Positions 3,241-27,690 of a stretch of DNA of 64,000 nt are shown one piece after another; positions within the stretch are counted from its first letter, which is position 1; the number at the start of each line of letters is the position of its first letter. Both the position numbers and the translations under genes were made by a program. The notes beneath the pieces are model-generated. The model made no database searches. It was not told the DNA's origin and saw only the letters and a list, made by a program, of their open reading frames with translations. Origin of the DNA: an uncultured Rothia sp. (GTDB lineage Bacteria > Actinomycetota > Actinomycetes > Actinomycetales > Micrococcaceae); NCBI RefSeq assembly GCF_916715725.1, contig NZ_CAKAPD010000001.1, positions 175,835-239,834 of the forward strand. The letters run 5' to 3'.

Positions 3241-4593
3241 TTATGCTTGGGGGCGCTGCGCTCGGGAGGCGCGGGTTGCGGTCACGTACGCCTGGATTTC
3301 GGCGGTCATCTCGGTGATGGGGCGGCCGCCTCGTGCGTCCAGGGTGAAGTGCGCCAACTCTTCGTATCGGCTGCGGCGGCGCTCAAAAATTTCGGTCCAC
3401 CGCTCGACCGGGTTCGGCTGCAGCAGCGGGCGGGTCTTGTTGCCGGTAATGCGCGGAGTGACGGTGTCAGCATCAACGAGGATGTACACCACGCATTCGT
3501 CCTTGAGCAGCTCCGCGACCGAGTCGGTCATGGGCGCGCCACCGCCCAGGGAGAACACCGTGTTGCGGTACACGGGCGAGGTGAGGACCTCTTCGATGGT
3601 TTTGCGTTCGAGCTCGCGGAAATACGCCTCACCGAAGATCTCGAAGATTTCGGAGACTTCGCCGTAGCGTTCCACGATGAGCTGGTCGGCGTCGAGGAAC
3701 TCGTAGCCGTAGAAACGCGCCAGGTGCGTACCAATGTAGGTCTTACCTGCCGCCATGGGGCCGATGAGCACAATGGGTCGGGAGCGTTCCGCGAAGTTCT
3801 CGTGCATTTCACGCACCTGCTGCGGGTGGATGCGCGCGCACTCCTCAAGCTCAACGGTCTCGGACTCGACATCCAGCTCCGCCTCGGATGCGGCGCGCGC
3901 CTCGGTTTCGGCAGCGGCCTCAGCAGAATCCACCGCCGCGATTTCCTCGGCCACAGACTCGGCCGCAGAAACCTGAACCTTGCCGAACAGCGCCGGGGTC
4001 GGACGCAACGGCTTGGGCGCAGCGGGCTTGGGTGCGGGGGCAGAGGTTGCGCTCTCCCCCGCCGCGGGCTGAGCCTGCTGAGGTGCGGTCGGCTTGGGAG
4101 CTACCGGCTTCGGGGCGGCGGGCTTGGGTGCGGGGGTTGCGGAAGTTTCGGCCTGTGCCGACTCCTCGCGAGGCTCCTTCTCAGCCATGCCCTGCAGGGC
4201 GCTGAGCAGCTTCAGGCGCAGGTCCTCGTCCAGGCCCAGCGCCGGGTCGGCGTCCTCAGACACCGAGGAGGCGTACAGGCGCACACCCTGCGTGCTCGCG
4301 GCAGCGGCGGGCAGGCGGCGAACCCCCGAACGCATCAGGTCAGCCGGGGTCGGCACGCGAGAAGCCGGGCGCGCAGAAGAAACCGACGCGACAGCCTCAC
4401 GAGCCTCAACGCCCGCAACCTCAGTGCCCGCCGCCTCAACAGCCTGCTCAGCCGCGGCAGATGCACCGGATTCCGGGCGCGGCGAAGCGCCCCCTCGCGC
4501 ACGCTGCGCAGCCGCAGCAATACGCGCAAGGGGGCTCGACGCGACGGGGTGAACGCCCGCAGGCTCAACCGGAAGAGGCACTACGCGTCCCAA
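3241..4593 (-). CDS. aroK: shikimate kinase with a roughly 260-aa Ala/Pro/Glu-rich low-complexity N-terminal extension (alternative internal start at 3807)
   Basis: C-terminal 188 aa match the shikimate kinase domain ([15 protein letters not shown]…[12 protein letters not shown]…). The upstream 260 aa are [10 protein letters not shown]-type repeats. The ORF overlaps the aroC stop by 13 nt. Confidence 0.7.
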
Positions 4594-14221: not shown

Positions 14222-14322
14222 ACGCGCGGCTAGTTTGGTGGCTAGTTTGCATGATGAATCCGCGCGCGGGCTGGTTTGGGCGATGAATCTGCGCGGCTGG
14301 TTTGGGGGATGAGCCGGCGCGG
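14222..14322. repeat. imperfect tandem repeats of about 26 bp (gatgaatcCGCGCGGGCTGGTTTGGG, roughly 2.5 copies) immediately 3' of rarA
   Basis: ggctagtttggtg / gctagtttgcatgatgaatccgcgcgcgggctggtttggg / cgatgaatctgcgcggctggtttggggg / atgagccggcgcgg. Confidence 0.55.
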
Positions 14323-15837
14323 TTAGTTGCCGCCGTCAAGAATCCTGCGGATACGCTCACGACGCTCCGTCAACGTACGCTCAAAACCGTGCTGAGTCGG
14401 CTCGTAGTAGACTGTGCCGCGCAGGGTATCCGGCAGGTACTGTTGAGCCGCCACGTGGCCCGGCGCATCATGCGCATAAATGTAGCCGTCACCGTGACCA
14501 AATTGCTTAGCCCCCGCATAGTGAGCGTCACGCAAATGCACCGGAACCTGACCCGAAGCGCCCGCACGGACATCCGCAATCGCGCGGTTAATCGCGTTAT
14601 ACGCGGCGTTCGACTTCGGCGCGAGCGCACAATAAATCACCGCCTGCGACAGGATAATACGAGCCTCCGGCATGCCCACCAGTGCCACCGACTGCGCCGC
14701 AGCCGTCGCCACCTGCAACGCCTGCGGATCAGCCAAACCAATATCCTCACTCGCCAAAATCATGATGCGACGCGCCACGAAACGCGGATCCTCGCCGCCC
14801 TCCAACATGCGCGCCAGGTAGTGCACCGCGGCATCAGCGTCAGAGCCGCGCATGGATTTAATGAACGCGCTCACCACGTCATAATGCTGATCGCCCGAAC
14901 GGTCATAACGAATCGCGGCGCGGTCTACCGCCTCCGTAGCGTGCGCCAGGGTGATGCGCACGGGCGCGGCGGGTTCGGGGTCCTTCTCCCCTGCTTCCCC
15001 CGCCGGTTCAACTGAGCCCTCGGCGGAAACGGCAGGTTCTGCCGAAGCCTGTTCGGCCTCGCTGAACGCGATGGCGGCCGCCGCCTCCAGCGAGGTCAGG
15101 GAGCGGCGAGCGTCGCCTCCGGAAACCGCCGCGAGGTGGGCGCGCGCATCCGCATCAATCACCGCCGCACCGCCAAAACCGCGCGGGTCAGCCAGAGCAC
15201 GGTCAATCAGGTGCTCAATATCGGACTGCTCCAGCGAATGAACCCGCAACAACAGCGAGCGCGAGAGCAGCGGCGAAATAACGCTGAACGACGGGTTCTC
15301 CGTCGTAGCCGCAACCAGAATCACCCAGCGGTTCTCCACGCCGGGCAGGAGCGCATCCTGCTGGGCCTTCGTGAAGCGGTGAATCTCATCGAGGAAGAGC
15401 ACGGTGGTCGTGCCGTACATATCGCGGTCGAGCAGCGCCTGGTCCATGACCGCGCGAACGTCCTTCACGCCCGCGGTAATCGCCGAAAGCTCCACGAACT
15501 TGCGGCCCGGCGCGCGCGCAATCACATGTGCCAGAGTGGTCTTACCCGTACCCGGCGGGCCGTACAGAATCACCGAGGAGGGGCCAGCCGGGCCGGCATT
15601 CTCCCCCGCCAACACGCGCAGGGGCGCACCCGGAGTCAGCAGGTGATCCTGGCCGAGAACCTCATCAATAGTGCGCGGACGCATCCGCACCGCCAACGGT
15701 GCACGAGACGCCGAACGGGCAGAGCGCGCACGCGACGCAGAAGTGCGCGAGGAGGCGGGCTCCTCAGCGGGCGCACCAATCAGGCTCACGCGGTCACCGT
15801 CGTCGGGCAGCTCAAGATCAAAGAGGGAATCAGCCAT
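14323..15837 (-). CDS. rarA: replication-associated recombination protein A (AAA+ ATPase)
   Basis: Walker A motif GPPGTGKTT and a MgsA C-terminal domain. The N-terminus is Ser/Arg-rich. Confidence 0.9.
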
Positions 15838-15928
15838 AGTCTTACTCTATCGTTTCACAGGCTTGAGGTGGGCGCGGGGTATGGACTTACGGGTGCGGAT
15901 TTAGCTCGCGGCGTGACGCCACACGGGT

Positions 15929-16004
15929 TTTCGATGGGGTTTCGATAGGTTAGTGTCTTCGCCGTGGGTTTTAAACCCCTGGGCAATCCACTAACCTATC
16001 GAAA
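15929..16004. repeat. REP/MITE-like palindromic element, copy 1 (arms ttcgataggttagtg / cactaacctatcgaa with an inner gggttttaaacccc hairpin)
   Basis: Same inverted-repeat arms as the copies near 19260, 20439 and 25006. Confidence 0.7.
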
Positions 16005-16013
16005 GCGCTGACC

Positions 16014-16448
16014 TTAGAGGGTCTCGCTGTCGAGGATCAGGGTCACCGGGCCGTTGTTGACGAGCTCCACCTGCATGTCCGCGCCGAACACGCCGGTCTC
16101 CACGTGTAGGCCACGCTCACGCAGCGCCTTAACGTAATCGTTGAACAGCGGCTCACTCACCGGACCCGGCGCTGCTGCAGACCAGGAGGGGCGGCGGCCC
16201 TTCTTCGCATCCCCATACAGGGTGAACTGGCTGACCGCCAGCACGGGTGCGCCCTCATCAAGGAGTGACTTCTCCCCCTCCAGCAGGCGCAGGTTCGCGG
16301 TCTTATCGGCAAGCTTCGCAACCTGGGCCGCGCCGTCGCCGTGGGTGATGCCGACCAGCACCAGGTAGCCGGGCCGGTCAATCGCGCCGACCGTCTCGCC
16401 GTTCACGCGCACCGCCGCGCGGGTTACGCGCTGAATAACTACTCGCAT
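16014..16448 (-). CDS. dtd: D-aminoacyl-tRNA deacylase
   Basis: 144 aa with SQFTL and NGPVT motifs. Confidence 0.9.
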
Positions 16449-16529
16449 CGTTCACCTTTCATTTGGAGCCGACTCTCGCCGGGCTCATACATCTTCTTTT
16501 AGTATCGCGGCGGTCAGTCGGCAACAGCT

Positions 16530-17057
16530 TCAGAGCCCGCCGCGCAGCTGCACGGCACGCAAAAACTGGTTCGCCGCCCGCGGGGTACGAAACTCAATAA
16601 AACGCTTCTGCAGATGCTGCCCGCGAGCCTCCGCCAGCAGCTGTCCGACGTGCGGGTAGCTCCTCCACGTGTACCGAATCATGTTGTCCGGGTCGCGCAG
16701 AATATCCTTCAGCGGCGGCTCCACATTATCCGCCCAGAGCTTCTGCCCCGTCACCGCGCGGCGCACCGTCCGACGAACCACACGCCACATCACCACCGCG
16801 CGGCTATAGCGCAGATAAATCACCACATCCGCACGCTCCAGCAGGCGGCCACGCACCTGCGGATACTGCCACTCCGTAATCCACGCGGGCCGCTCAATGA
16901 GCGCCTGAACATCCGCCTCAAAACTAGGGCGCGGAGTCCAGTCCGGACCCCAATGCAACGAATCCATCTCCGTATGCGGAATATTCAGGATGCGCCCCAA
17001 CCGCGCCGCAAACGTCGTCTTACCGCTACCGCTCGGGCCCGCAATCAGGATGCGCAT
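16530..17057 (-). CDS. P-loop NTPase (adenylate-kinase/topology-modulation FlaR-like)
   Basis: MRILIAGPSGSGKTT Walker A motif in a 175-aa ORF. Confidence 0.65.
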   Translation of the reverse strand: MRILIAGPSGSGKTTFAARLGRILNIPHTEMDSLHWGPDWTPRPSFEADVQALIERPAWITEWQYPQVRGRLLERADVVIYLRYSRAVVMWRVVRRTVRRAVTGQKLWADNVEPPLKDILRDPDNMIRYTWRSYPHVGQLLAEARGQHLQKRFIEFRTPRAANQFLRAVQLRGGL

Positions 17058-17107
17058 GCTCCCCCTCCCCCTTGGTTAGTACACAGATCGGCACGCACGC
17101 CAGTTGA

Positions 17108-17157
17108 TACAAAAGGTGGGCTGCGACCCTGCACAGCAGAATACACAGCCCACCCTC
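17108..17157 (-). terminator. rho-independent terminator of aspS (GGGTGGGCTG…CAGCCCACC plus TTTTGTATC on the minus strand)
   Basis: 9-10 bp GC stem with a U-tract. It lies 110 nt after the aspS stop. Confidence 0.6.
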
Positions 17158-17264
17158 AACGGCGCCCCGGCAAGACCCGAGCCTCACAGCCCAGAACACC
17201 CTACCGGGTTCACGCCGCACGCCTCACACCCCAGCCGGGGCGCAAGACCAAAGACTGGAGAAGA

Positions 17265-19043
17265 TTACTCCTCGTCCTTCTTCTTCGGCTTGAAATCAAC
17301 GCCAGCTTCCTTACGCTGCTCCGGGGTAATCGGTGCAGGAGCCGCAGTCAGCGGATCGTAGCCGTTACCGGTCTTCGGGAACGCGATAACCTCGCGGATC
17401 GAATCAACGCCAGCCAGCAGAGACACAATACGGTCCCAGCCGAACGCAATACCACCCATGGGCGGTGCGCCGTACTTGAACGCATCCAGCAGGAAGCCGA
17501 ACTTCTCCTGGGCCTCTTCCTCACCAATGCCCATCACAGCGAACACGCGTTCCTGCACGTCACGGCGGTGAATACGGATCGAGCCGCCACCAATCTCGTT
17601 GCCGTTGCAGACAATGTCGTACGCGTACGCCAGAGCCGAACCCGGGTCAGTGTCGAAAGTGTCCATGAACTCGGGCTTCGGAGAGGTGAACGCGTGGTGC
17701 ACAGCAGTCCAAGCAGAGTGGCCCAGAGCCACGTCACCGGACTCAGTAGCCTCAGCGGAAGACTCGAACATGGGAGCGTCAACAACCCACACGAAGGACC
17801 ACTCGCCGTCCTTAATCAGGCCGGTACGGTGACCAATCTCAACACGAGCAGCACCCAGCAGCGCACGGGAAGCCTTAGCCTCACCAGCAGCGAAGAAGAT
17901 GCAGTCGCCGGGCTTCGCGCCGGTAGCCTCAGCCAGGCCAGCACGCTCAGCGTCGGTAATGTTCTTAGCCACCGGACCGGTCAGCTCACCGTCCTCCTGA
18001 ATGAGAACGTAAGCCAGACCCTTAGCGCCGCGCTGCTTAGCCCACTCCTGCCAAGCGTCCAGGGTACGGCGAGGCTGAGAAGCGCCACCGGGCATCACAA
18101 CGGCGCCCACGTAGGGAGCCTTGAACACGCGGAAAGTGGTGTCCTTGAAGTACTCGGTCAGCTCGGTCAGCTCCAGGCCGAAGCGCAGGTCGGGCTTGTC
18201 CGAACCGTACTTCTCCATCGCGTCCTTGTAGGTCATGCGCTGAATCGGGCGGGGAACCTTCACGTCAATCAGGTTCCACACGGCCTCAACGATGCGCTCG
18301 CCCAGCTCAATGATGTCTTCCTGATCAACGAACGACGCCTCAATGTCCAGCTGAGTGAACTCAGGCTGACGGTCCGCACGGAAATCCTCGTCACGGTAGC
18401 AGCGAGCAATCTGGTAGTACTTCTCAATACCGCCCACCTGCAGCAGCTGCTTGAACAGCTGCGGGGACTGCGGCAGAGCGTACCAAGAACCCGGAGCCAG
18501 ACGAGCCGGCACCAGGAAGTCACGCGCACCCTCGGGGGTGGAACGGGTCAGGGTCGGGGTCTCAACCTCAATGTAGCCGTCCTCGGCCAGCAGGTTACGT
18601 GCCGCACGGTTCGCGTCCGAACGCAGGCGCATGATGCGAGCCGGCTCCGGGCGGCGAAGATCCAGGTAGCGGTAGCGCAGGCGCGCCTCCTCACCCACCT
18701 CAACGTGCTCGTCAATCTGGAAAGGCAGCGGGGCCGCGGTGTTCAGCACCTCGACGGCAGACACCTCAACCTCAATCTCGCCGGTCGCCAGGTTCGGGTT
18801 CTCATTACCCTCCGGACGCTTAGTCACCAGACCGGTCACACGCAGAACATACTCGTTGCGCAGGTGCTCAAAATCAGCCTCGTTGTGGAAAACACACTGG
18901 GTGACACCCTCACGGTCACGCAGGTCAACGAAGGCGACACCACCGTGGTCGCGGCGGCGAGCCACCCAACCGGTCAGGGTGACGGTCTCTCCAATGTTTG
19001 CGGCGGTCAGCTCGCCGTTGGTGTGAGTGCGAAGCACAGACAT
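17265..19043 (-). CDS. aspS: aspartate--tRNA ligase
   Basis: Class II AspRS motifs (…FRDE…, GGGSIRIH). I chose the internal start [13 protein letters not shown], which is preceded by an AAAGGA SD. The longer ORF reaches 19127. Confidence 0.9.
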
Positions 19044-19259
19044 TCCTTTCATAGCGGGCACCTCACGACTATAGACAGTAGCCGGGTACTCGCGGTTGAT
19101 GATATGCGCACACTGCGTGCGCCTCATATATTGTATCCCCTCCGGGCAGGTCGAGGGCGGGTCAGAGCAGGTTGGGGCAAGTCAGGCGCCAGTCAGGCGG
19201 CAGAAAATGGGGTGCGGAGGCGGGATGCGGGTAGGGCGGCAGGTTCGTGGGTGTCTGCG

Positions 19260-19342
19260 GTCGATAGGTTAGTGTCTTCGCCATGGGTCTTTAACCCGGG
19301 GTGAAGACACTAACCTATCGAAAAGTCACTAACCTATCGAAG
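19260..19342. repeat. REP/MITE-like palindromic element, copy 2 (upstream flank of the DUF559 gene)
   Basis: ggtcgataggttagtgtcttcgcc-atgggtctttaacccgg-ggtgaagacactaacctatcg plus the trailing half-site aaaagtcactaacctatcgaag. Confidence 0.75.
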
Positions 19343-19465
19343 TATTACCGAGGAATCCGCTCCATCTGCCTGTGGACAAACACTTTTTCGGTAGAATCCG
19401 CGAAGTTATCCACAGATTTCACAAACAAGCCCCACAACTCCACACAGCCTGCCAGGATAAAGCCT

Positions 19466-20422
19466 ATGAACACCGCAACCATTCCATGGCAACGCAACCC
19501 GCACAAGCCACCGACTACACCAGAAATCACCCGTGCCGCAGAACTACACCCATTCGTGCTGAACTCCCAGATGCTCAACCTGCGAGGAATCGGGCCGAAA
19601 CGCATTCGCAAGCTAGTGGCGGAAGGGTCTCTGCAGCGCATCCAACGAGGAGCCTATATTTATACCCGCGATGCCCAAGCGCTCACCCCCGAAGAACGAC
19701 TCACGGTACGATGCATCGCTGCTCAGACGATGGGTCTTCAAGGGGTCTTCTCCCACACATCAGCCGCGGCGCTATGGGGACTTGATGTGCTCTCTGTTCC
19801 CCAAACGATAAGCGTGTATAGCTGCAGTCATAGCACCTCTGACAAGGGAAGAATCACCCGGCATTACAGTGCCACCGGCCCCGAGGAGGTCACCCGATTA
19901 CCGGGCACATCCATCATGGTTACGACGGTGGCTCGAACGTTGCAGGATTGCGCTCGCAACATGCCCTTTCGGGAGGCAGTAGTTCTCGCTGACTCCATCA
20001 TGCGGCGGGGACTCTTGGAACCCCACGAGGTAACCGAGATTCTGCTGAATCTTACCGGCTACGGCGGTTCCTCCGGGCGCATCCTGGCGCAGGCGGTGGA
20101 TGCATCCAGCGAGTCAGCAGGTGAAAGCCTCACCCGGTGCCTACTCATGGAACACAGGCTACCCTCACCCGTTACGCAATACCCGGTTTCTTGCGAGGGT
20201 CGTAACTACCGGGTGGACTTCGCCTGGCCCGAGGCGCGGGTCATCCTCGAGTTCGACGGTGAACAGAAATACGTGGATTACCCCGGCAGGGACCGGTACG
20301 AGGCTGCTCGCGACCGTGCCCTAGCCCGCGCCGGGTGGACGGTCGTGCATCTAACCTGGGCTGACATTTTTCAGAAAGAACAGGAAGTCATTACCCACCT
20401 GCGGAAACTGCTTTTGAGGTAA
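19466..20422 (+). CDS. DUF559 / AbiEi-antitoxin-like domain protein (endonuclease-like C-terminal domain)
   Basis: The C-terminal …YRVDFAWPEARVILEFDGEQKY… is DUF559-like. The N-terminus resembles AbiEi-type wHTH proteins. The ATG at 19466 is chosen. The longer ORF starting near 19301 begins inside the repeat element. Confidence 0.65.
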   Translation: MNTATIPWQRNPHKPPTTPEITRAAELHPFVLNSQMLNLRGIGPKRIRKLVAEGSLQRIQRGAYIYTRDAQALTPEERLTVRCIAAQTMGLQGVFSHTSAAALWGLDVLSVPQTISVYSCSHSTSDKGRITRHYSATGPEEVTRLPGTSIMVTTVARTLQDCARNMPFREAVVLADSIMRRGLLEPHEVTEILLNLTGYGGSSGRILAQAVDASSESAGESLTRCLLMEHRLPSPVTQYPVSCEGRNYRVDFAWPEARVILEFDGEQKYVDYPGRDRYEAARDRALARAGWTVVHLTWADIFQKEQEVITHLRKLLLR

Positions 20423-20438
20423 AGCAAGGAAACACCTC

Positions 20439-20524
20439 GGTCGATAGGTTAGTGTCTTCCCTGCGGGTTAAAGACCCACGGCGAAGACACTAACCTATCG
20501 AAAAATCACTAACCTATCGAAAAT
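20439..20524. repeat. REP/MITE-like palindromic element, copy 3 (downstream flank of the DUF559 gene; the inner loop is inverted relative to copy 2)
   Basis: ggtcgataggttagtgtcttcc-ctgcgggttaaagacccacgg-cgaagacactaacctatcg plus aaaaatcactaacctatcgaaaatc. Confidence 0.75.
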
Positions 20525-20676
20525 CTGGGCCCGCACAAAAAGACCCGCCCGGCAGGGAGGTCAACATCCTCCCCACCAGGCGGGTACACATCCATATGCA
20601 GGCTTGCAGTGGCCAAACACTACAAGCAGCTAGATACTACAGCGGCCAAGCACCGCAGGCATTACAGTCCCTAAGA

Positions 20677-22038
20677 TTACAGGCCCTCAGCACGCACGAT
20701 CTGAACGTGCAGGTCCTCAGCCGGCGGCATCCACGAAGCCGGATCGGCAGCAACCTGCTCACCCGAACGGATGTCCTTCACCTCGTGAACCGGGGCGCCC
20801 GACTCATCCGAAGAAATGAACCACACGAACGGAATGCCGCGCTTCTCGGCGTACTTAATCTGCTTGCCGAACTTCGCCGCGTTCGCCGACACCTCGCAGG
20901 CGATACCGCGGGCGCGCAGTGCATCCGCAACATCGTTCGCAGCAGACCAGCCCTCATCATTGGTCAGGGCAACGAACACAGCCGAAGGCACCTTACGGCT
21001 CGCCTGCGCAAAGCCCTGCGACAGGATACGAGCCACCACACGGGTCACGCCAATGGACAGGCCCACGCCCGGGTACGTCTTCTTGCCGTTCGAGGCCAGC
21101 GACTCGTAGCGACCACCCGAGCAAATCGAACCCAGCGACTCGTGGCCGACCAGCACGGTCTCGTACACGGTGCCGGTATAGTAGTCCAGACCGCGAGCAA
21201 TCGACAGGTCAGCCAGCACCTTACCCGGCGCACGGCGGGACGCCTCCTCAATGACCTCGGCCAGCTCAGTCAGGCCCTGGTCCAGCAGCTCGTGCTCCAC
21301 CGAATACTTGGCGGCCAGCTCACGCACCTGCTCCACGAAGGATGCATCCTCGGTACGAATCTGGGCCAGCTCCAGGGCGGCCGCGGCAGCCTCCGCGCTC
21401 GCTCCGGCCTCGGACTGAAGCTCCTCGGCCACGCGCTCCGGACCAATCTTCTCCAGCTTGTCGATGGAGCGCAGCACGGCCGCGGTGTCGGTCAGGCCCA
21501 GGCCCAGGTAGAAGCCCTCGGCCAGCTTGCGGTTATTCACACGCAGCTTGAACTCAGGAATCGGCAGCTTCGACAGCGCATCAACAACAACCAGCGCCAA
21601 GGTCACGTCGTAACGGAACGGCAGCTCACCGTCGCCAACCACGTCAATATCAGCCTGAGTGAACTCGCGGGCACGACCCTCCTGCGGACGCTCACCACGC
21701 CACACCTTCTGAATCTGGTAACGCGAGAACGGGAAATTCAGGTAACCGGCGTTCTCCACCACGTAACGGGCAAACGGCACGGTCAGGTCAAAGTGCAGAG
21801 CCAGCTTTTCCTTAGCCTTAGCAGCCTCATCCTCCTGCAGGCGAGAAATTGCGTAAACTTCCTTGTCAATCTCACCCTTGCGCAGCAGCTGCTCAATCGT
21901 CTCTACCGAACGAGTCTCAATCGGGGAGAAACCGTGCAACTCAAAAGTCTCACGCAGAGTGTCCAGAACATGATTCTCAACCAACCGCTCAGCCGGAAGA
22001 TACTCGGGAAAACCAGACAGCGAAGCCTTGCGAGCCAT
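20677..22038 (-). CDS. hisS: histidine--tRNA ligase
   Basis: HisRS motifs (…FELHGFSPIETRS…, GGRYD). The start MARKASLSGFPE is preceded by AAGGAG. Confidence 0.9.
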   Translation of the reverse strand: MARKASLSGFPEYLPAERLVENHVLDTLRETFELHGFSPIETRSVETIEQLLRKGEIDKEVYAISRLQEDEAAKAKEKLALHFDLTVPFARYVVENAGYLNFPFSRYQIQKVWRGERPQEGRAREFTQADIDVVGDGELPFRYDVTLALVVVDALSKLPIPEFKLRVNNRKLAEGFYLGLGLTDTAAVLRSIDKLEKIGPERVAEELQSEAGASAEAAAAALELAQIRTEDASFVEQVRELAAKYSVEHELLDQGLTELAEVIEEASRRAPGKVLADLSIARGLDYYTGTVYETVLVGHESLGSICSGGRYESLASNGKKTYPGVGLSIGVTRVVARILSQGFAQASRKVPSAVFVALTNDEGWSAANDVADALRARGIACEVSANAAKFGKQIKYAEKRGIPFVWFISSDESGAPVHEVKDIRSGEQVAADPASWMPPAEDLHVQIVRAEGL

Positions 22039-22340
22039 ACGCGATACTCCTTGACAAAGAACTCGACAACAAAACCCCGGAACACCTCCGGGCATATCTA
22101 CCCATCATACCAACACCCACCCCGGCACAGCACCCACTCCCCCACCTCACCCGGCACAAACCCCCACAAACCCGCGGACTGCAGGTTCGCCCACAACACA
22201 ACACGACCAGACACTACTCACACACACCCCACAGAGGCTATGCTTAGGAGGTGCACACGCACACCCAAACGGGTGCCCACCACGGGGAACAGCGCAAAGG
22301 CGCCCCACCCCCAGCACCCCCGAGTGAAAGAGTTATAGCG

Positions 22341-23609
22341 GTGACTACCAAACCCGACGACACTGTAAACCTCGAAAAGGCACGCCAGTACGGCCGCGTC
22401 TCCGAGGACGGCCACGTCTTCGTCATTGTCGACGGCGAAGAATACGCCGTAGGCCAGCTGCCCGGCGCCTCCGAAGAAGAAGCGCTCAGCTACTTCGCCC
22501 GCAAGTTTGAAAACGTCGAGGCGCAGGTTGCCCTGCTCGAATCCCGCCTCGCCAACAACGCCCCCGCCGCAGACCTGCAGAAGGGCATCACCTCCATCGG
22601 TGCACAGATCGGTGTGCGCAACATGGTCGGTGACTACTCCGGCCTGCAGAAGCGCCTCATCGCACTGGCAGAGCAGATCGCTGAACTCGGCGAAAAGCAG
22701 CAGCAGGCACGCACCGAAAACCGTGAACGCGCCCTCGCCGTCCGTGAAGAAATCGTCGCGGAAGCCGAGCAGATTGCCGGCCAGGACCCCGACCAGATCC
22801 ACTGGAAGAACTCCCACTCCCGTATGAACGAACTGTTCGAAGCGTGGAAGAAGGCACAGCGCGAAATTCACCTGGCAAAGAGCGTAGAGGACGAGCTGTG
22901 GAAGCGTTTCCGTGCAGCCCGCACCACCTTCGACCGCAACCGCCGCGCACACTTCTCGCAGCTCGACGACCGCAACGCACGCATCAAGCGCGCCAAGGAA
23001 GAGCTGATTGCACGCGCCGAAGAGCTGTCGACCTCCACTGACTGGTCTGAGACTTCCCGCGTATACGGCGACCTGATGCGCGCCTGGAAGCAGGTACCCC
23101 GCGGCCACCGTCGCGAAGACGACAAGCTGTGGGCACGCTTCCGCGCGGCACAGGACGTGTTCTTCAACGCCCGCAACGAAGCCGAAGCAGCGCAGGACGC
23201 AGTCTACGCCGAAAACCTCAAGGTCAAGGAAGCACTGCTCGAAGAAGCACGCGCACTCCTGCCCGTCGAAGACATTGAGAGCGCAAAGGCAGCCTTCGAG
23301 AAGATCCTGGACCGCTGGGATGCGGCAGGCCGCGTACCCCGCAACGACCTGCGCCGCGTCGACGGCGAACTGCGCCGTATTCAGGACGAAATCAACGGCG
23401 CCGAAGAGGCAAAGTGGAAGCGCAACGACCCCGCCAAGGCGGCACGCGCGAACTCCCTGCTCGCACAGATCGAGGACTCCCTCGCCGAACTGGAAGCAGA
23501 GCTCGCAGCAGCTGAAAAGGGCGGCGACTCCAAGAAGATCGCCAAGGCAAAGGAAGCTCTGGAGGCGCGCCGCGCCTGGGCAGCAACCCTGCAGGGCTTC
23601 GGCAACTAG
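22341..23609 (+). CDS. DUF349 domain-containing protein
   Basis: Repeated coiled-coil DUF349 units (…WKxAxR…). I chose the GTG at 22341, which has a GAAAGAG SD. The upstream GTG at 22251 abuts its SD with no spacer. Confidence 0.7.
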   Translation: MTTKPDDTVNLEKARQYGRVSEDGHVFVIVDGEEYAVGQLPGASEEEALSYFARKFENVEAQVALLESRLANNAPAADLQKGITSIGAQIGVRNMVGDYSGLQKRLIALAEQIAELGEKQQQARTENRERALAVREEIVAEAEQIAGQDPDQIHWKNSHSRMNELFEAWKKAQREIHLAKSVEDELWKRFRAARTTFDRNRRAHFSQLDDRNARIKRAKEELIARAEELSTSTDWSETSRVYGDLMRAWKQVPRGHRREDDKLWARFRAAQDVFFNARNEAEAAQDAVYAENLKVKEALLEEARALLPVEDIESAKAAFEKILDRWDAAGRVPRNDLRRVDGELRRIQDEINGAEEAKWKRNDPAKAARANSLLAQIEDSLAELEAELAAAEKGGDSKKIAKAKEALEARRAWAATLQGFGN

Positions 23610-23647
23610 GGTCTAGCCGACGGTCTAAATAACGGTCTAATTAACGC

Positions 23648-23716
23648 CGAGAAGCCACATGTGTTTCGAAAAGCCACTTCTTTGGTGGCTTCTCGAAACA
23701 CATGTGGCTTCTGCAT
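23648..23716. repeat. 65-bp near-perfect palindrome H1 (agaagccacatgtgtttcgaaaagccac-ttctttg-gtggcttctcgaaacacatgtggcttct)
   Basis: 28-bp stem with one mismatch. An inverted copy lies at 25130-25200. Confidence 0.8.
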
Positions 23717-23775
23717 GTCTGCGGGGGTTATATTCGCGCCCGCGGTGGCGCAGATTCCACGACCGGTCAACAGAT

Positions 23776-23800
23776 TGCTTGATAGGTTAGCATCTTGGCT
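23776..23800. repeat. partial copy of the REP/MITE arm (tgataggttagcatcttgg)
   Basis: Shares gataggttag with the arm of the dispersed element. Confidence 0.4.
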
Positions 23801-23984
23801 ACGAGCTAAAACCTCTCCTAAGTCAATACATTATGACTGAAGTTATAACTCATGAACCAATTTTCTACATAGATTGGCGCCTGCATTTATTTCATAGAAC
23901 CTATAATCACATTTAATCACTACAATCCAAGTGTAGCAAAAGACCTTTTCACTTAATACGGCAGCACACCCCTGAGGTTAAATA

Positions 23985-24881
23985 CTATCTAGTGAGTGCT
24001 ATTCCATATAAGAAGTTCAGAAAAAGAGCAGTTGCGGTGACGAGTAAGTACATGCAAAAAACTTGAATACTAGATTTGATGATTATCTTTTGAGTATTTT
24101 TATGGTTCCCCTCTTCAGCGTCATCTACCATATATTTTACAAAATCGAGATATACCAGATATGAGCTCGCTCCGAGAATGGCACCAACCACCGGAATCGC
24201 TGTTGTAAGAACCCCAAAGGGTTCTCCTTGAATCAAGGCAATCGTGAAGCCAATAAACAACCCGATAGTCGTTCCCCTACCAGCATAATCAATAAATTCA
24301 CGTATTAACGGAGTGAAGTACCCGACCTGCCACCTCGCTTTTATCCAGGAGCACTTCTCTAAGAAGCCCATTCCTTTAATAAGGTGCAGAGCGTCATCAA
24401 TGCTAATCTCACTGGCATTTTCCCAAACTTCAATTGTAGAATAGAATTCTTTCAGAGATACATAAACCTCCTGGAATGAATCATTTTTGGGAGATAAGTT
24501 AGTCATTTTCTTCAGCTGATTCAGTGAATTCATGCATCGATTCCGAGCAGCAGCACTTGAGTTATCTTCAGCTTTTTTAATGAAATACTGAACCTTATCA
24601 ATAAAGTCATTTTCTAAATCTTTCCTGGGAAACAGATTAAATGGGTGACGTAATTGATAAGCGAAATTCTTAAGTTCCTTCTTTCCAAATCGCTTCCAGT
24701 ATTCAGTCCTAGTTTCCTTACCTATCCCAAAATAACTCAGAACATTTAAAATGATCTCTCGCCTTGCAGCAGAGTACCAGTAATATCCAGTTGCTTCAAG
24801 GACAATATCAAAAATAGTCCAGGCAATTGATAAAACCAGGCAAAGAGCTGTAACTGCTACGACCGTACCAAAACTATACAA
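23985..24881 (-). CDS. orphan low-GC membrane protein (N-terminal TM, roughly 180-aa soluble domain, 2-3 C-terminal TM helices) with a TTG start
   Basis: 298-aa ORF in a roughly 35% GC segment. A TTG start at 24881 is preceded by AAGGGA with a 6-nt spacer. No recognisable family. Confidence 0.6.
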   Translation of the reverse strand: MYSFGTVVAVTALCLVLSIAWTIFDIVLEATGYYWYSAARREIILNVLSYFGIGKETRTEYWKRFGKKELKNFAYQLRHPFNLFPRKDLENDFIDKVQYFIKKAEDNSSAAARNRCMNSLNQLKKMTNLSPKNDSFQEVYVSLKEFYSTIEVWENASEISIDDALHLIKGMGFLEKCSWIKARWQVGYFTPLIREFIDYAGRGTTIGLFIGFTIALIQGEPFGVLTTAIPVVGAILGASSYLVYLDFVKYMVDDAEEGNHKNTQKIIIKSSIQVFCMYLLVTATALFLNFLYGIALTR

Positions 24882-25005
24882 AATTATTCCCTTCTTTTGA
24901 AATTGTAAGAGTACAAAAAACTGCCAATGCTACTACGTACTCTATAACCAAAGGTACGGGGCACCCCTGACAAGATAAGGGGCTACACCTGCAGAATTTG
25001 TGCCA

Positions 25006-25068
25006 TGGTTTAGTGTCTTTGACCATAGTTTTTAACTACGACAGAAGTCACTAACCTATGGTCGAAAT
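25006..25068. repeat. degenerate REP/MITE-like copy 4 (ggtttagtgtcttt … agtcactaacctatggtcgaaa)
   Basis: Variant arms ctaacctatgg/ccataggttag-like lie inside the low-GC island. Confidence 0.5.
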
Positions 25069-25129
25069 CGGCGCCAGGCAGAGGGACCGACCAGCAGAGT
25101 AAATCCGTGCCGATACCGCCCCCATAGAC

Positions 25130-25200
25130 AGCGAGAAGCCACATGTGTTTCGAGAAGCCACCAAAGAAGTGGCTTTTCGAAACACATGTGGCTTCTCGGC
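25130..25200. repeat. 65-bp palindrome H2, the reverse complement of H1 (loop caaagaa)
   Basis: agaagccacatgtgtttcgagaagccac-caaagaa-gtggcttttcgaaacacatgtggcttct lies immediately 3' of rel. Confidence 0.8.
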
Positions 25201-25212
25201 GTAGAAAAGTAT

Positions 25213-27690
25213 TTACGCCTCCGAGGGCTTCGCGCCGGTCAGGCGGTACGCCTTGTACACGCCCGTCACGTTACGGACCACGTTCAGCACGTGCTCCAGC
25301 ATGAAGCGGTCACCCAGCTCCAGGGCGAAACGGTCCACCACGGTACGATCCTCCGAAGTGTGAACGCGCGCATCCAGGATGTTCACGCCCGACTCAGAAA
25401 TCGCGCGAATCAGGTCGCTCAGCAGGCCCTTACGGTCCAGCGCCTCCACCTGAATCTGCACACGGTACGTAGCGGTCGGCGAAGACGCCCACTCAACCGT
25501 CGTCACGCGCGGCTCCTCGTCAGCGTTACGCATGTTCGGGCAGTCGCGACGGTGCACCGAAATGCCGTTGTAGCGGGTCACAATGCCGATAATGTCATCC
25601 GGCGGGACCGGGGTGCAGCAGCGCGCAATCTTCGTCAGCACACCCTCAGCACCCGGCACAATCACGCCGTTATCGCCAATCGCCTTGCGGGTCGACTTCA
25701 GCAGTGTCTCGTCAAAGTCGCTGACCTCAACCTCGGGTGCCGGCTCGTCGCCGCGGTGCACCTCAACGAGGGTGTCAATGACCTGCTTCGGCGCGATCTC
25801 GTGCTCACCAATCGCACGGTACAGCGACGCCACATCGTTCTTGTGCAACAGCTGAGCCACCTGAGTCATAATCTCCGGGCTCATCATCTTCTGCAGCGGC
25901 AACTCACTGTTACGCATGCTCTTGGTGAGCATCTCGCGGCCGGCGAGCAGCGCCTCCAGGCGGCGTTCCTTCGCGAAGTACTGGCGGATCTTCGTGCGAG
26001 CGCGTGAGGAGCGAACGAACTTCAGCCAGTCCTCGCTGGGGCCGGCGTCTTCGTTCTTCGTGGTCATGATCTCCACGGTGGCGCCGGTGGGCAGGACCGT
26101 GTGCAGCGGTACCAGGCGACCGTTGACCTTCGCGCCGACGGTGCGGTCGCCGACCTCACTGTGGATGGCGTAGGCGAAGTCCACGGGGGTGGAGCCGTTG
26201 GGCAGGGCAATTGCCTCGCCGTTGGGGGTGAGTACGACAATTTCGTCGGTGTCGAGGGTGTCGGCGAGCGACTCGTAGAACTTCTCCGATTCCGGGTTGG
26301 AGTTCGAAATCTCGGCGATGGACTGCAGGATGCCGACGTTCATCATTGCCGAGGTCTGGGTGCCCGGTTCCTTCGGGTCCTTTGCGGGCGCGCCGCCACG
26401 AGCCGCGACCTTCTCCCCGCGTGACGCCGCCTTGTAGCGCCAGTGCGCCGCCACACCGTACTCGGCCTCTTCGTGCATCTTGTAGGTGCGGATCTGAATC
26501 TCAAGCGGCAGGTTACCGGGGCCGTACACAGTCAGGTGCAGCGACTGGTAGTTGTTGTTCTTCGGGTTCTTAATGTAGTCCTTGAAACGGCCGGTCATCG
26601 ACGGCCACAGGGACAGCACGTGGCCGAGCACGGTGTAGCACTCCGCCTCTTCCTCAACCATGATGCGCACGGCGAGGATGTCGTTAATCTCGTCGAAGCT
26701 GCGGCCCTTCGTCTTCATCTTCTGATGAATCGAGTAGTAGTGCTTGGGGCGGCCCGTCACGGTCGCGTCGATGCCCACTTCTTTCAGGCGGTCCGTAATC
26801 TTGGTGCGCGCCTCGTTCAGGAACTTTTCGAGCGCGGGGGTGCGTTCGCCGACCATGCGCACCATCTCGGCGTAAATCTCCGGGCTCATGGCGGCGAAGG
26901 ACAGGTCCTCCAGCTCCCACTTGATCGTGTTCAGGCCCAGGCGGTGCGCGAGCGGCGCGTAAATCTTCAGGGTCTCTTCTGCCTTCTTCGCGGCGGAAGC
27001 CTGCGGCACGAAACGCCAGGTGCGGGCGTTGTGCAGGCGGTCGGCAAGCTTGATGAGCAGCACGCGGATGTCCTTGCTCATGGACAGCACGAGCTTGCGG
27101 ATTGTCTCAATGGAGGCGTTCTCGCCGTAGGTCATCTTGTCCAGCTTGGTCACGCCGTCGACCAGGTAGGCGACCTCCTCACCGAACTCTTCGGTGAGCT
27201 GCTCCATCGTGTAGTCGGTGTCTTCCACCGTGTCATGCAGCAGGCCGGCGGCGAGCACGGGACCGGTCGCGCCCATCTCCGCAAGAATCGCGGTCACAGC
27301 GACCGGGTGGGTGATGTACGGGTCGCCACTCTTACGCTTCTGACCCTCGTGGCAGCGGTTCGCCACCTCGTAGGCGCGCTGCAGCACCTGAATGTCCTCA
27401 TCCGGGTGGTAGCGGCGCACCGCACGCACGACCGGCGCAATCATCGGGGAGAAACGGATGGTACCGCCGTGCGAGTCGGAGGCTTCCATCTTGCTGCTGC
27501 GGCTACCAAAGACCAGGCGGTTCGGCACACGTCCGCCAGCAGCCATGACGCGGTGCGAGCCGCGTTTCTTCTTTGCGTCAGACGAATCAGTTTCAGGCAG
27601 AGGAATCGGGCCAGCGGGCCGAACCGCGGGCTTCTCGGCGGTCCCTGCGGGATTCTCAGCGTTAGCGTTCACGGCAGGTTCTGCACTCAT
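25213..27690 (-). CDS. relA: bifunctional (p)ppGpp synthetase/hydrolase Rel (RelA/SpoT family)
   Basis: HD hydrolase, synthetase (…YQSLHLTVYGP…), TGS and ACT regions. I chose the ATG at 27690, which has a GGAGC SD. Confidence 0.9.
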   Translation of the reverse strand: MSAEPAVNANAENPAGTAEKPAVRPAGPIPLPETDSSDAKKKRGSHRVMAAGGRVPNRLVFGSRSSKMEASDSHGGTIRFSPMIAPVVRAVRRYHPDEDIQVLQRAYEVANRCHEGQKRKSGDPYITHPVAVTAILAEMGATGPVLAAGLLHDTVEDTDYTMEQLTEEFGEEVAYLVDGVTKLDKMTYGENASIETIRKLVLSMSKDIRVLLIKLADRLHNARTWRFVPQASAAKKAEETLKIYAPLAHRLGLNTIKWELEDLSFAAMSPEIYAEMVRMVGERTPALEKFLNEARTKITDRLKEVGIDATVTGRPKHYYSIHQKMKTKGRSFDEINDILAVRIMVEEEAECYTVLGHVLSLWPSMTGRFKDYIKNPKNNNYQSLHLTVYGPGNLPLEIQIRTYKMHEEAEYGVAAHWRYKAASRGEKVAARGGAPAKDPKEPGTQTSAMMNVGILQSIAEISNSNPESEKFYESLADTLDTDEIVVLTPNGEAIALPNGSTPVDFAYAIHSEVGDRTVGAKVNGRLVPLHTVLPTGATVEIMTTKNEDAGPSEDWLKFVRSSRARTKIRQYFAKERRLEALLAGREMLTKSMRNSELPLQKMMSPEIMTQVAQLLHKNDVASLYRAIGEHEIAPKQVIDTLVEVHRGDEPAPEVEVSDFDETLLKSTRKAIGDNGVIVPGAEGVLTKIARCCTPVPPDDIIGIVTRYNGISVHRRDCPNMRNADEEPRVTTVEWASSPTATYRVQIQVEALDRKGLLSDLIRAISESGVNILDARVHTSEDRTVVDRFALELGDRFMLEHVLNVVRNVTGVYKAYRLTGAKPSEA

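Follow-up and report, generated by a model that had tools for sequence, protein, structure and literature searches.

To which system does a family of short palindromes belong that recurs between the genes of a Rothia chromosome, and does a neighbouring gene act on it? The question arises in a window of 64,000 nucleotides from an uncultured Rothia sp. (NCBI RefSeq assembly GCF_916715725.1, contig NZ_CAKAPD010000001.1, positions 175,835 to 239,834 of the forward strand; "the window" is this whole stretch), where an earlier note had described a dispersed family of palindromic elements resembling repetitive extragenic palindromes (REPs) and miniature inverted-repeat transposable elements (MITEs). 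We consider it probable that these palindromes are the cognate DNA sites of a gene located between two of them, which encodes a protein composed of an AbiEi-like module and a DUF559 nuclease domain, and that Rothia adds gene-less satellite units to this arrangement. The gene, its two inverted flanking palindromes and a set of extra half-sites are likely to form one module that recurs across Actinomycetota, with a palindrome sequence particular to each lineage.

The repeated palindromic family is real. In the window, CTAACCTATCG is found ten times with at most one mismatch, against 0.43 occurrences expected from shuffled sequences, and all ten matches lie within 15943-25061; the arm 17-mer GATAGGTTAGTGTCTTC, searched with up to three mismatches, also has ten matches against 0.08 expected. 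A profile made from 74 element copies recovered three full copies (15942-16002, 19261-19321 and 20441-20501, hereafter copies 1, 2 and 3; E-values of 1e-17 to 1e-21), one degenerate copy (25009-25059, E 2e-6), one half copy (23781-23825, E 0.011) as well as two trailing half-sites (19323-19340 and 20504-20520), with no element copies in the other 54 kb of the window. A single half-site of the family reads TCGATAGGTTAGTG. Folded as single-stranded DNA, copies 1, 2 and 3 form hairpins of -21.7, -28.3 and -24.3 kcal/mol (z-scores of -8 to -10); the degenerate copy folds weakly (-9.3 kcal/mol, z -2.6) and the half copy, placed at 23776 previously and at 23781 by the profile, forms no hairpin (z -0.2).

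The earlier note was right about the existence of the family, about the extra half-site that trails two of its copies, which are copies 2 and 3, and about the inversion of the loop between them: the copy 3 loop is the reverse complement of the copy 2 loop. Its count of four full copies and one partial copy becomes three strong 61-nt copies and one half copy, the one that it placed at 25006 being degenerate and a member of another subfamily. The element of about 80 bp has a core of 61 nt and reaches some 80 nt only when the extra half-site is counted, and the first copy starts near 15940 rather than at 15929. That all copies are intergenic holds only if the gene next to copy 2 starts at 19466, where the alignment of homologues sets it, and not at 19301, the start of a mechanically called open reading frame (ORF; 19301-20422) that overlaps copy 2. 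Copies 2 and 3 pair with each other as a 61-nt inverted repeat with 93% complementarity, and the inverted loop is explained if they are true inverted terminal repeats of the gene that they enclose.

The product of this gene matches AbiEi_4 and DUF559 in Pfam (DUF559 with E 1e-7), and AbiEi models of PADLOC cover its residues 23-210. Two modules can be delimited, an AbiEi-like winged-helix module at residues ~23-200 and a Vsr/DUF559 PD-(D/E)xK nuclease domain at residues ~225-318. In an AlphaFold model (predicted local distance difference test 87.9, predicted template modelling score 0.84), the N-terminal two-thirds match AbiEi of S. agalactiae (6y8q; Foldseek), and the last 100 residues match the catalytic domain of I-Bth0305I (3r3p) with a template modelling (TM) score of 0.75 over the target and a root-mean-square deviation of 2.8 A. 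The nuclease domain also matches Vsr (1vsr) and a DUF559 structure (3hrl), with Foldseek probabilities of 0.98-1.0 that include 3r3p. Residues E216, E220, D251, E262, D264 and K268 are invariant in 33 sequences, down to 30% identity with the window protein; they are typical of a PD-(D/E)xK catalytic site and putatively form one. Pfam, Foldseek and the invariant acidic residues agree in predicting the Vsr/DUF559 PD-(D/E)xK fold.

The gene is under purifying selection: all nine Rothia alleles are intact, with a ratio of non-synonymous to synonymous substitution rates of 0.09-0.33. Its allele classes are separated by a synonymous divergence (dS) of 0.65-0.93, and the flanking genes aspS and hisS are 94-98% identical in DNA; the divergent alleles (window and loci L003, L005, L051 and L059) are either old balanced classes or the outcome of repeated replacement at one site. 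No AbiEii/DUF1814 toxin gene adjoins it, the neighbours being aspS and hisS, and only one such gene occurs among 63 sequences. A phage or plasmid origin was rejected: viral contigs do not contain the element pattern, the protein matches nothing from phages, and its six matches in 'plasmid' records are weak and all in non-mobilizable records of 148 kb to 11.9 Mb. With 4,522 cluster representatives at E<=1e-30, and 22,532 when the threshold is E<=1e-10, in a set of 1.84 billion, the protein family is very large. It includes Rv1073 of M. tuberculosis, which has the same domain pair and was in 2026 still a conserved hypothetical protein (PMC13366182). In a related Rothia metagenome contig (L070, 2822-4611), aspS is called in two pieces, and the DUF559 gene, truncated to 225 aa, precedes 2.6 kb in which no genes are called; the locus may reflect an assembly error or decay.

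The gene and the palindromes occur together, first of all within Rothia. In eight of eight Rothia genomes with the aspS-hisS interval, an element pair brackets the DUF559 gene, in five combinations of subfamilies: 1 + 1 (window, L050 and L018), 1 + 4 (L041 and strain D1), 4 + 4 (L003 and L059), 2 + 2 (L005) and 2 + 1 (L051). Outside Rothia, we sampled 11 loci with homologues 25-37% identical to the window protein. Nine of these have a palindrome on either side of the gene, the two being related to each other and their sequences unrelated between lineages. These loci belong to Kocuria, Arthrobacter and Tersicoccus (L063, L064 and L065), to Sinomonas, Beutenbergiaceae and Paenarthrobacter (L066, L067 and L068), to a further actinobacterium (L069), to Collinsella (L072, with four units upstream and two downstream) and to a second Sinomonas paralogue (L074). 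The two palindromes at L069 are 61 nt long; compared as inverted repeats, loops included, they show 97% complementarity, and compared as direct repeats, 89% identity. A single Sinomonas genome contains both paralogues, which share 51% identity and have each their own palindrome pair. Several of the non-Rothia loci also contain tandem half-site repeats, with periods of 20 or 31 nt, outside or inside the palindromes, and the Beutenbergiaceae half-site TTAGTGA resembles the TTAGTG of Rothia. Their genomic contexts are all different and include the inside of an opp operon and of a Pup-proteasome operon, a pattern that, read from gene order, is typical of an inserted gene. The association of gene and palindrome is well supported.

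Table. Coordinates of the palindromes, genes and terminators in the window and of the repeated terminator hairpin at other Rothia loci
Feature	Sequence	Position	Strand	Remarks
Copy 1, solo subfamily-1 palindrome	window	15940-16004	none	between dtd stop codon (16014) and rarA start (15837); hairpin z -8.3
Copy 2, subfamily-1 palindrome, left terminal repeat of DUF559 gene	window	19261-19321		loop GGGTCTTTAACCC; hairpin z -10.2
Extra half-site AAGTCACTAACCTATCGA	window	19322-19341	+	19 nt downstream from right arm of copy 2, in register
AbiEi-like/DUF559 nuclease gene	window	19466-20422	+	318 aa; proposed cognate protein of the palindromes
Copy 3, subfamily-1 palindrome, right terminal repeat of DUF559 gene	window	20441-20501		loop inverted relative to copy 2
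Extra half-site AATCACTAACCTATCGAAAA	window	20502-20521	+	beside copy 3
Canonical intrinsic terminator of hisS	window	20543-20585	-	18-bp stem and T run; immediately upstream of copy 3 in the direction of transcription
P2 palindrome	window	23644-23727		GAGAAGCCACATGTGTTTCGAAAAGCCAC..., loop, reverse complement; DUF349 side of variable island; hairpin -33.7 kcal/mol
Half copy, subfamily-2-like left arm and loop	window	23781-23825		ends just past loop, where low-GC cargo DNA starts
Low-GC cargo ORF	window	23985-24881	-	298 aa; predicted membrane protein, no Pfam match; 53% identity to an ORF of this island in D1
Degenerate subfamily-2 palindrome	window	25002-25062		far edge of low-GC island
P2 palindrome, second copy	window	25119-25202		rel side of variable island; hairpin -36.1 kcal/mol
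Repeated terminator hairpin	L001	1560-1680
Repeated terminator hairpin	L016	4470-4530
Repeated terminator hairpin	L031	5440-5490
Repeated terminator hairpin	L007	~6200
Repeated terminator hairpin	L013	~2920

An association of this kind would also arise if the palindromes were operators only, through which the AbiEi-like module autoregulates its own gene, the solo copies being passive duplicates or a small regulon and no nuclease-driven mobility being involved. The fold of the N-terminal module matches that of AbiEi, an antitoxin that is reported to bind inverted repeats cooperatively (PMC7319586; see also PMC3985639) and, through such binding, to autoregulate. In addition, copy 2 is situated between aspS and the gene, in their divergent promoter region, and the elements are conserved like functional sites. 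An operator, however, does not need the equally conserved second palindrome that is found downstream of the gene in Rothia and nine other lineages. Solo copies lie 3' of unrelated genes, past their terminators and not in promoters, units are gained and lost between strains, and the protein carries a fused nuclease domain with invariant residues of catalytic type, under purifying selection. A purely regulatory role is, in our view, unlikely. Another regulatory candidate was rejected. The iron box of DtxR/IdeR is a 19-bp palindrome, TTAGGTTAGSCTAACCTAA, with half-sites one base apart; here TAGGTTAG and CTAACCTA are separated by about 41 nt, and the sites lie 3' of genes and not in promoters.

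How widely the palindromes are dispersed was determined by an exact-pattern scan of 185,579 species genomes, one genome per species, which returned 62 loci, all from Rothia mucilaginosa or close Rothia, and so assigns the window to that group. The earlier note would have given up the family if no further copies existed elsewhere in the genome and the arms were not conserved among strains; these 62 loci supply such copies, and the elements are conserved among strains. Loci of a single genome are located on up to 4 contigs, as in strain P3C3.S176, whose loci lie on four. In strain D1, four 8-kb tiles of the complete chromosome contain 5 strict matches and, with subfamilies counted, at least 11 copies; such copy numbers, like the distribution as a whole, are biased lower bounds, because the Rothia loci were ascertained via subfamily 1. 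Searching the fetched loci with the profile gave 148 matches at E<=1e-3, comprising 117 distinct sequences and at least four subfamilies, all with the same gap-free 61-column layout. The family is multi-locus but low-copy and clustered; with about five strict copies per genome, it is not the dense, genome-wide element that had been proposed.

These figures bear on a more conventional explanation, according to which the elements are classical REPs, or the REP-derived hairpins called REPINs, served by a REP-associated tyrosine transposase (RAYT), ordinary MITEs derived from a DDE insertion sequence at another genomic site, or attC sites of the integron type. Their palindromic and extragenic nature, their mosaics resembling bacterial interspersed mosaic elements (BIMEs), their variation by whole units and the gene 'cassettes' at their flanks would all suit such elements. 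Copy number, as counted in tiles with subfamily 1, is in the tens, not the hundreds, and no Y1/HUH transposase, DDE transposase, integrase or RAYT was found among about 50 neighbouring proteins scanned. The search for a cognate transposase or RAYT that had been recommended was negative among these neighbours; the likely cognate protein is encoded by the nuclease gene between copies 2 and 3. As for integron attC sites, the motifs run in the order GTTAG...CTAAC, opposite to that of attC (RYYYAAC...GTTRRRY), and with no integrase in the window region or among the neighbours this candidate was rejected. We attach very little probability to any of these classical assignments.

The symmetry of the elements is itself conserved. 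In 112 distinct copies, 84.5% of the cells pair, against about 36% when the partners are slid by 1-3 columns, and changes are seen on both sides in 16 of 28 pairs. Invariant or nearly so are the TTA of the left-arm TTAG, the mirror-image TAA of the right arm and an asymmetric TTTAAC centre, and the half-site of the Rothia units, arranged around this conserved centre, is TTAG(Y)G. Copies in the arrays of L024, L045 and L013 are spaced by about 130 nt and the linkers between array copies hold further half-site-like motifs, so that the full unit would measure about 125 nt, with two outer and two inner half-sites. Conservation of the elements (0.939) is on a level with that of ORFs (0.9395) and above that of other intergenic DNA (0.915); among orthologues of copy 1, between dtd and rarA, mean pairwise identity is 0.975, as against 0.76 in the intergenic flanks.

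Stable hairpins that lie mostly at the 3' ends of genes might be signals in RNA or transcription, either intrinsic terminators, as had been suggested for this family, or 3' stabilising hairpins like the REPs of E. coli. The terminators proved to be separate structures: the arrays directly follow canonical intrinsic terminators at the 3' ends of unrelated genes, so that a hairpin with its own T run stands between gene end and element, just upstream of the copies. To judge from the sequences of copies 1-3, the elements themselves lack a T tract, and none of them was called by the terminator scan. Copy 2, moreover, is upstream of two divergent genes (aspS and the DUF559 gene). G-T and A-C mispairs are balanced (225 and 236), and thus give no sign of selection on one transcribed strand or of a strand-specific RNA. 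Rfam yielded no match in the whole window at gathering thresholds or in 15800-25400 at E<=1, except for one to a plant microRNA on the long hairpin of a second palindrome, P2, which was discarded as chance. A role at the RNA level is accordingly most improbable.

The terminators are nonetheless physically linked to the palindromes. An identical terminator hairpin, with AGACAGAGG and then a subfamily-1 copy after it, stands behind at least five different genes. The repeated stretch consists of GGCGGCCCCGGATG, a loop, CATCCGGGGCCGCC, TGCTTTTT and AGACAGAGG and is always joined to a subfamily-1 palindrome. Its recurrence behind at least five genes makes the terminator a part of the repeated mosaic, with which it appears, from these junctions, to travel. 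At L012 (~390-450), a chimeric hairpin has a left arm and upstream linker of subfamily-1 type (TAGACAGAGGTTTTCGATAGG...) and a right arm of subfamily 2, which suggests recombination or conversion between subfamilies inside an array. The P2 palindromes are unrelated to the main family and number 58 instances in 45 of 63 sequences, alongside the arrays in most loci. Each P2 arm contains two GAAGCCAC half-sites 19 nt apart, which is the spacing of the trailing half-site in the main family.

Units and gene are both rearranged between strains. Behind one gene, strains have zero, one or two extra units between the terminator and the subfamily-1 copy. Relative to aspS and hisS, the DUF559 gene is inverted in L005, L006 and L042 and not in L051, which has the same allele class; recombination between the inverted flanking repeats would produce such an inversion. 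Half elements that end in or just past the loop and are joined to another subfamily or to low-GC cargo were seen in L059 (4235-4267), in L003 (4503-4532), on the hisS side in L041 (~4680) and in the window (23781-23825). They may mark breakage at the palindrome centre, but the independent half-copies number only two, too few to establish recurrent breakage at the loop.

Copies of both palindrome families border a variable island. Between DUF349 and rel (window 23.6-25.2 kb), P2 and element copies edge an interval within which the segment 23800-25000 has a GC content of 37-45%, as against about 62%; at the break of the half copy, GC falls from 0.59 to 0.37-0.45. Its single tabulated ORF was rejected as a cognate protein, being unrelated to DUF559, without a family match and in appearance membrane cargo. 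The content of the island changes from strain to strain, with a low-GC membrane-protein gene in the window and in L029, a different low-GC gene in L020, and restriction-modification and helicase-nuclease genes in strains D1 and HMSC061D12. Array neighbours in other strains include HsdM, a MutH/Sau3AI-like nuclease, Abi_2, a Schlafen-domain protein and a phospholipase D (PLD)-helicase; from its gene content, the interval looks like a hotspot for defence genes or cargo. Other element sites adjoin a CLC channel/DUF6609 pair and a copper ATPase/CsoR pair.

Such a setting invites the view that the arrays are structural or recombination anchors beneficial to the host, used for cassette exchange by homologous recombination after DNA uptake, and that the DUF559 gene is chance cargo. 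Arrays and P2 do bracket the DUF349-rel island, whose content is strain-variable (membrane protein, type I restriction-modification, MutH/Sau3AI-like, Abi_2, Schlafen and PLD-helicase genes), and the DUF559 alleles, at the dS values given above, are far more diverged than their flanks. This view leaves unexplained why homologues in nine other lineages, in unrelated contexts, have each their own palindrome pair and half-site repeats, and why none of the Rothia genomes examined lacks the gene at this site. We judge it improbable.

Several observations weigh against the palindromes being sites of an active nuclease that moves them, and have to be set beside the evidence in its favour. Orthologous copies bear locus-specific signatures, which implies that most copies are old and static and have not transposed recently. 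The extra block found behind one gene is bracketed by a duplicated 21-nt segment made of the 3' arm of the terminator and its T run; it was rejected as a clean target-site duplication, because the terminator arm is itself part of the repeated mosaic, and unequal recombination explains the pattern equally well. Strict one-to-one covariation between gene allele and flanking subfamily was likewise rejected, the combinations being mosaic. Outside Rothia, the homologues of Tsukamurella (L071) and Nonomuraea (L073) are without clear flanking palindromes, and no solo copies were seen in six 13-kb loci. A search for dispersal in Collinsella was uninformative, as the 13 BLAST places in one 900-kb record pooled both strands with the six local copies. 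To these points must be added the ascertainment of the Rothia loci via subfamily 1.

With these reservations, we return to the proposal that the palindromes are cognate sites of the AbiEi-like/DUF559 protein, and infer binding, cleavage at the conserved centre and active mobility as its mode of action. An oligomer of the protein would bind the half-sites through its winged-helix module and would cut at or near the palindrome centre, possibly when the palindrome takes the form of an extruded hairpin or cruciform. Breaks made in this way could lead to gain and loss of units, to inversion of the gene between its repeats and to exchange of neighbouring DNA. In Rothia, solo units of about 125 nt form mosaic arrays next to intrinsic terminators and border variable islands made up largely of defence genes. 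The arrangement would amount to a pairing of the REPIN/RAYT kind, between a vertically inherited, single-copy nuclease and a small population of satellite palindromes.

The comparison with REPINs and RAYTs is instructive in both directions. The RAYT gene is single-copy, vertically inherited and flanked by its own type of repeat (Bertels and Rainey, PMC3337134; see also PMC3116915). Shared features are the short extragenic palindromes that form a small sequence population, the mosaic, BIME-like arrays at gene ends, the vertically inherited single-copy gene flanked by repeats, and a repeat type for each gene copy, as in the two Sinomonas paralogues. The flanked gene here, in contrast, encodes an AbiEi_4 and DUF559 nuclease in place of the HUH/Y1 transposase that defines RAYTs; copies appear to be in the tens (at least 11 in D1, counted in subfamily-1 tiles only) and not in the hundreds; and the Rothia units have four half-sites and an asymmetric centre, in an actinobacterial host, with satellites demonstrated to date for Rothia only.

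Parts of the protein and of its genomic arrangement resemble three further systems. AbiE, a toxin-antitoxin system of type IV, shares the AbiEi fold of the N-terminal two-thirds, but in the present case no AbiEii gene adjoins, a nuclease domain follows the C-terminal part of the antitoxin, and palindromes flank the gene on either side and recur at other genomic sites. In the predicted model, the C-terminal domain superposes on the catalytic domain of I-Bth0305I, of the EDxHD homing endonucleases (PMC3239194), and on Vsr and DUF559 structures. As with homing endonuclease genes, the insertion is solitary, between conserved genes and at places that differ by genus; unlike them, it is not in an intron or intein, its recognition module is another one, and complete palindromes bracket it rather than the halves of a split target. 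Lastly, noncoding units of about 125 nt with long inverted arms, present or absent according to strain, with a flanking direct repeat and a position at terminator hairpins, are reminiscent of MITEs and of mobile elements that target hairpins. Known examples of these are Correia, ERIC and RUP, and insertions of the IS1397 type into REP loops. The palindromes on either side of the DUF559 gene, of subfamilies 1, 2 and 4, also occur in the solo units, which makes the gene module the putative autonomous element; the solo units differ from MITEs in that no related DDE insertion sequence was found among the neighbouring proteins and in that the 21-nt flanking duplication, an arm of the mosaic terminator, may not be a true target-site duplication.

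A broader proposal, which we put forward tentatively, is that AbiEi-like/DUF559 proteins are the enzymes of an unrecognised class of selfish or domesticated elements of actinobacteria. The nuclease would recognise hairpin-forming terminal palindromes and half-site iterons, would move the gene that encodes it, or home it, and in certain lineages, Rothia among them, would mobilise REPIN-like satellites as seeds of recombination hotspots for defence islands. That this is a new class of mobile element is a genuine possibility. No description of the arrangement was found in the literature searched, 8 million full texts queried for DUF559, AbiEi, Vsr, Rothia with REP, and REPIN/RAYT in Actinobacteria. 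If the proposal is true, it provides a first functional handle on the very large 'conserved hypothetical' actinobacterial family of AbiEi and DUF559 proteins, Rv1073 included, and the DNA target of each protein could be predicted from the flanks of its own gene. It would also mean that the lifestyle of a repeat with a captive nuclease, exemplified by REPINs and RAYTs in proteobacteria, arose independently with another protein fold in high-GC Gram-positives, and it would link such repeats to the variable borders of defence islands in a common human oral commensal.

The window also has short tandem or direct repeats that bear no relation to the palindromes. At 14240-14320 there are three units of 26-29 nt, and at 3994-4136 a GC-rich sequence of 47 nt occurs twice, 96 nt apart.

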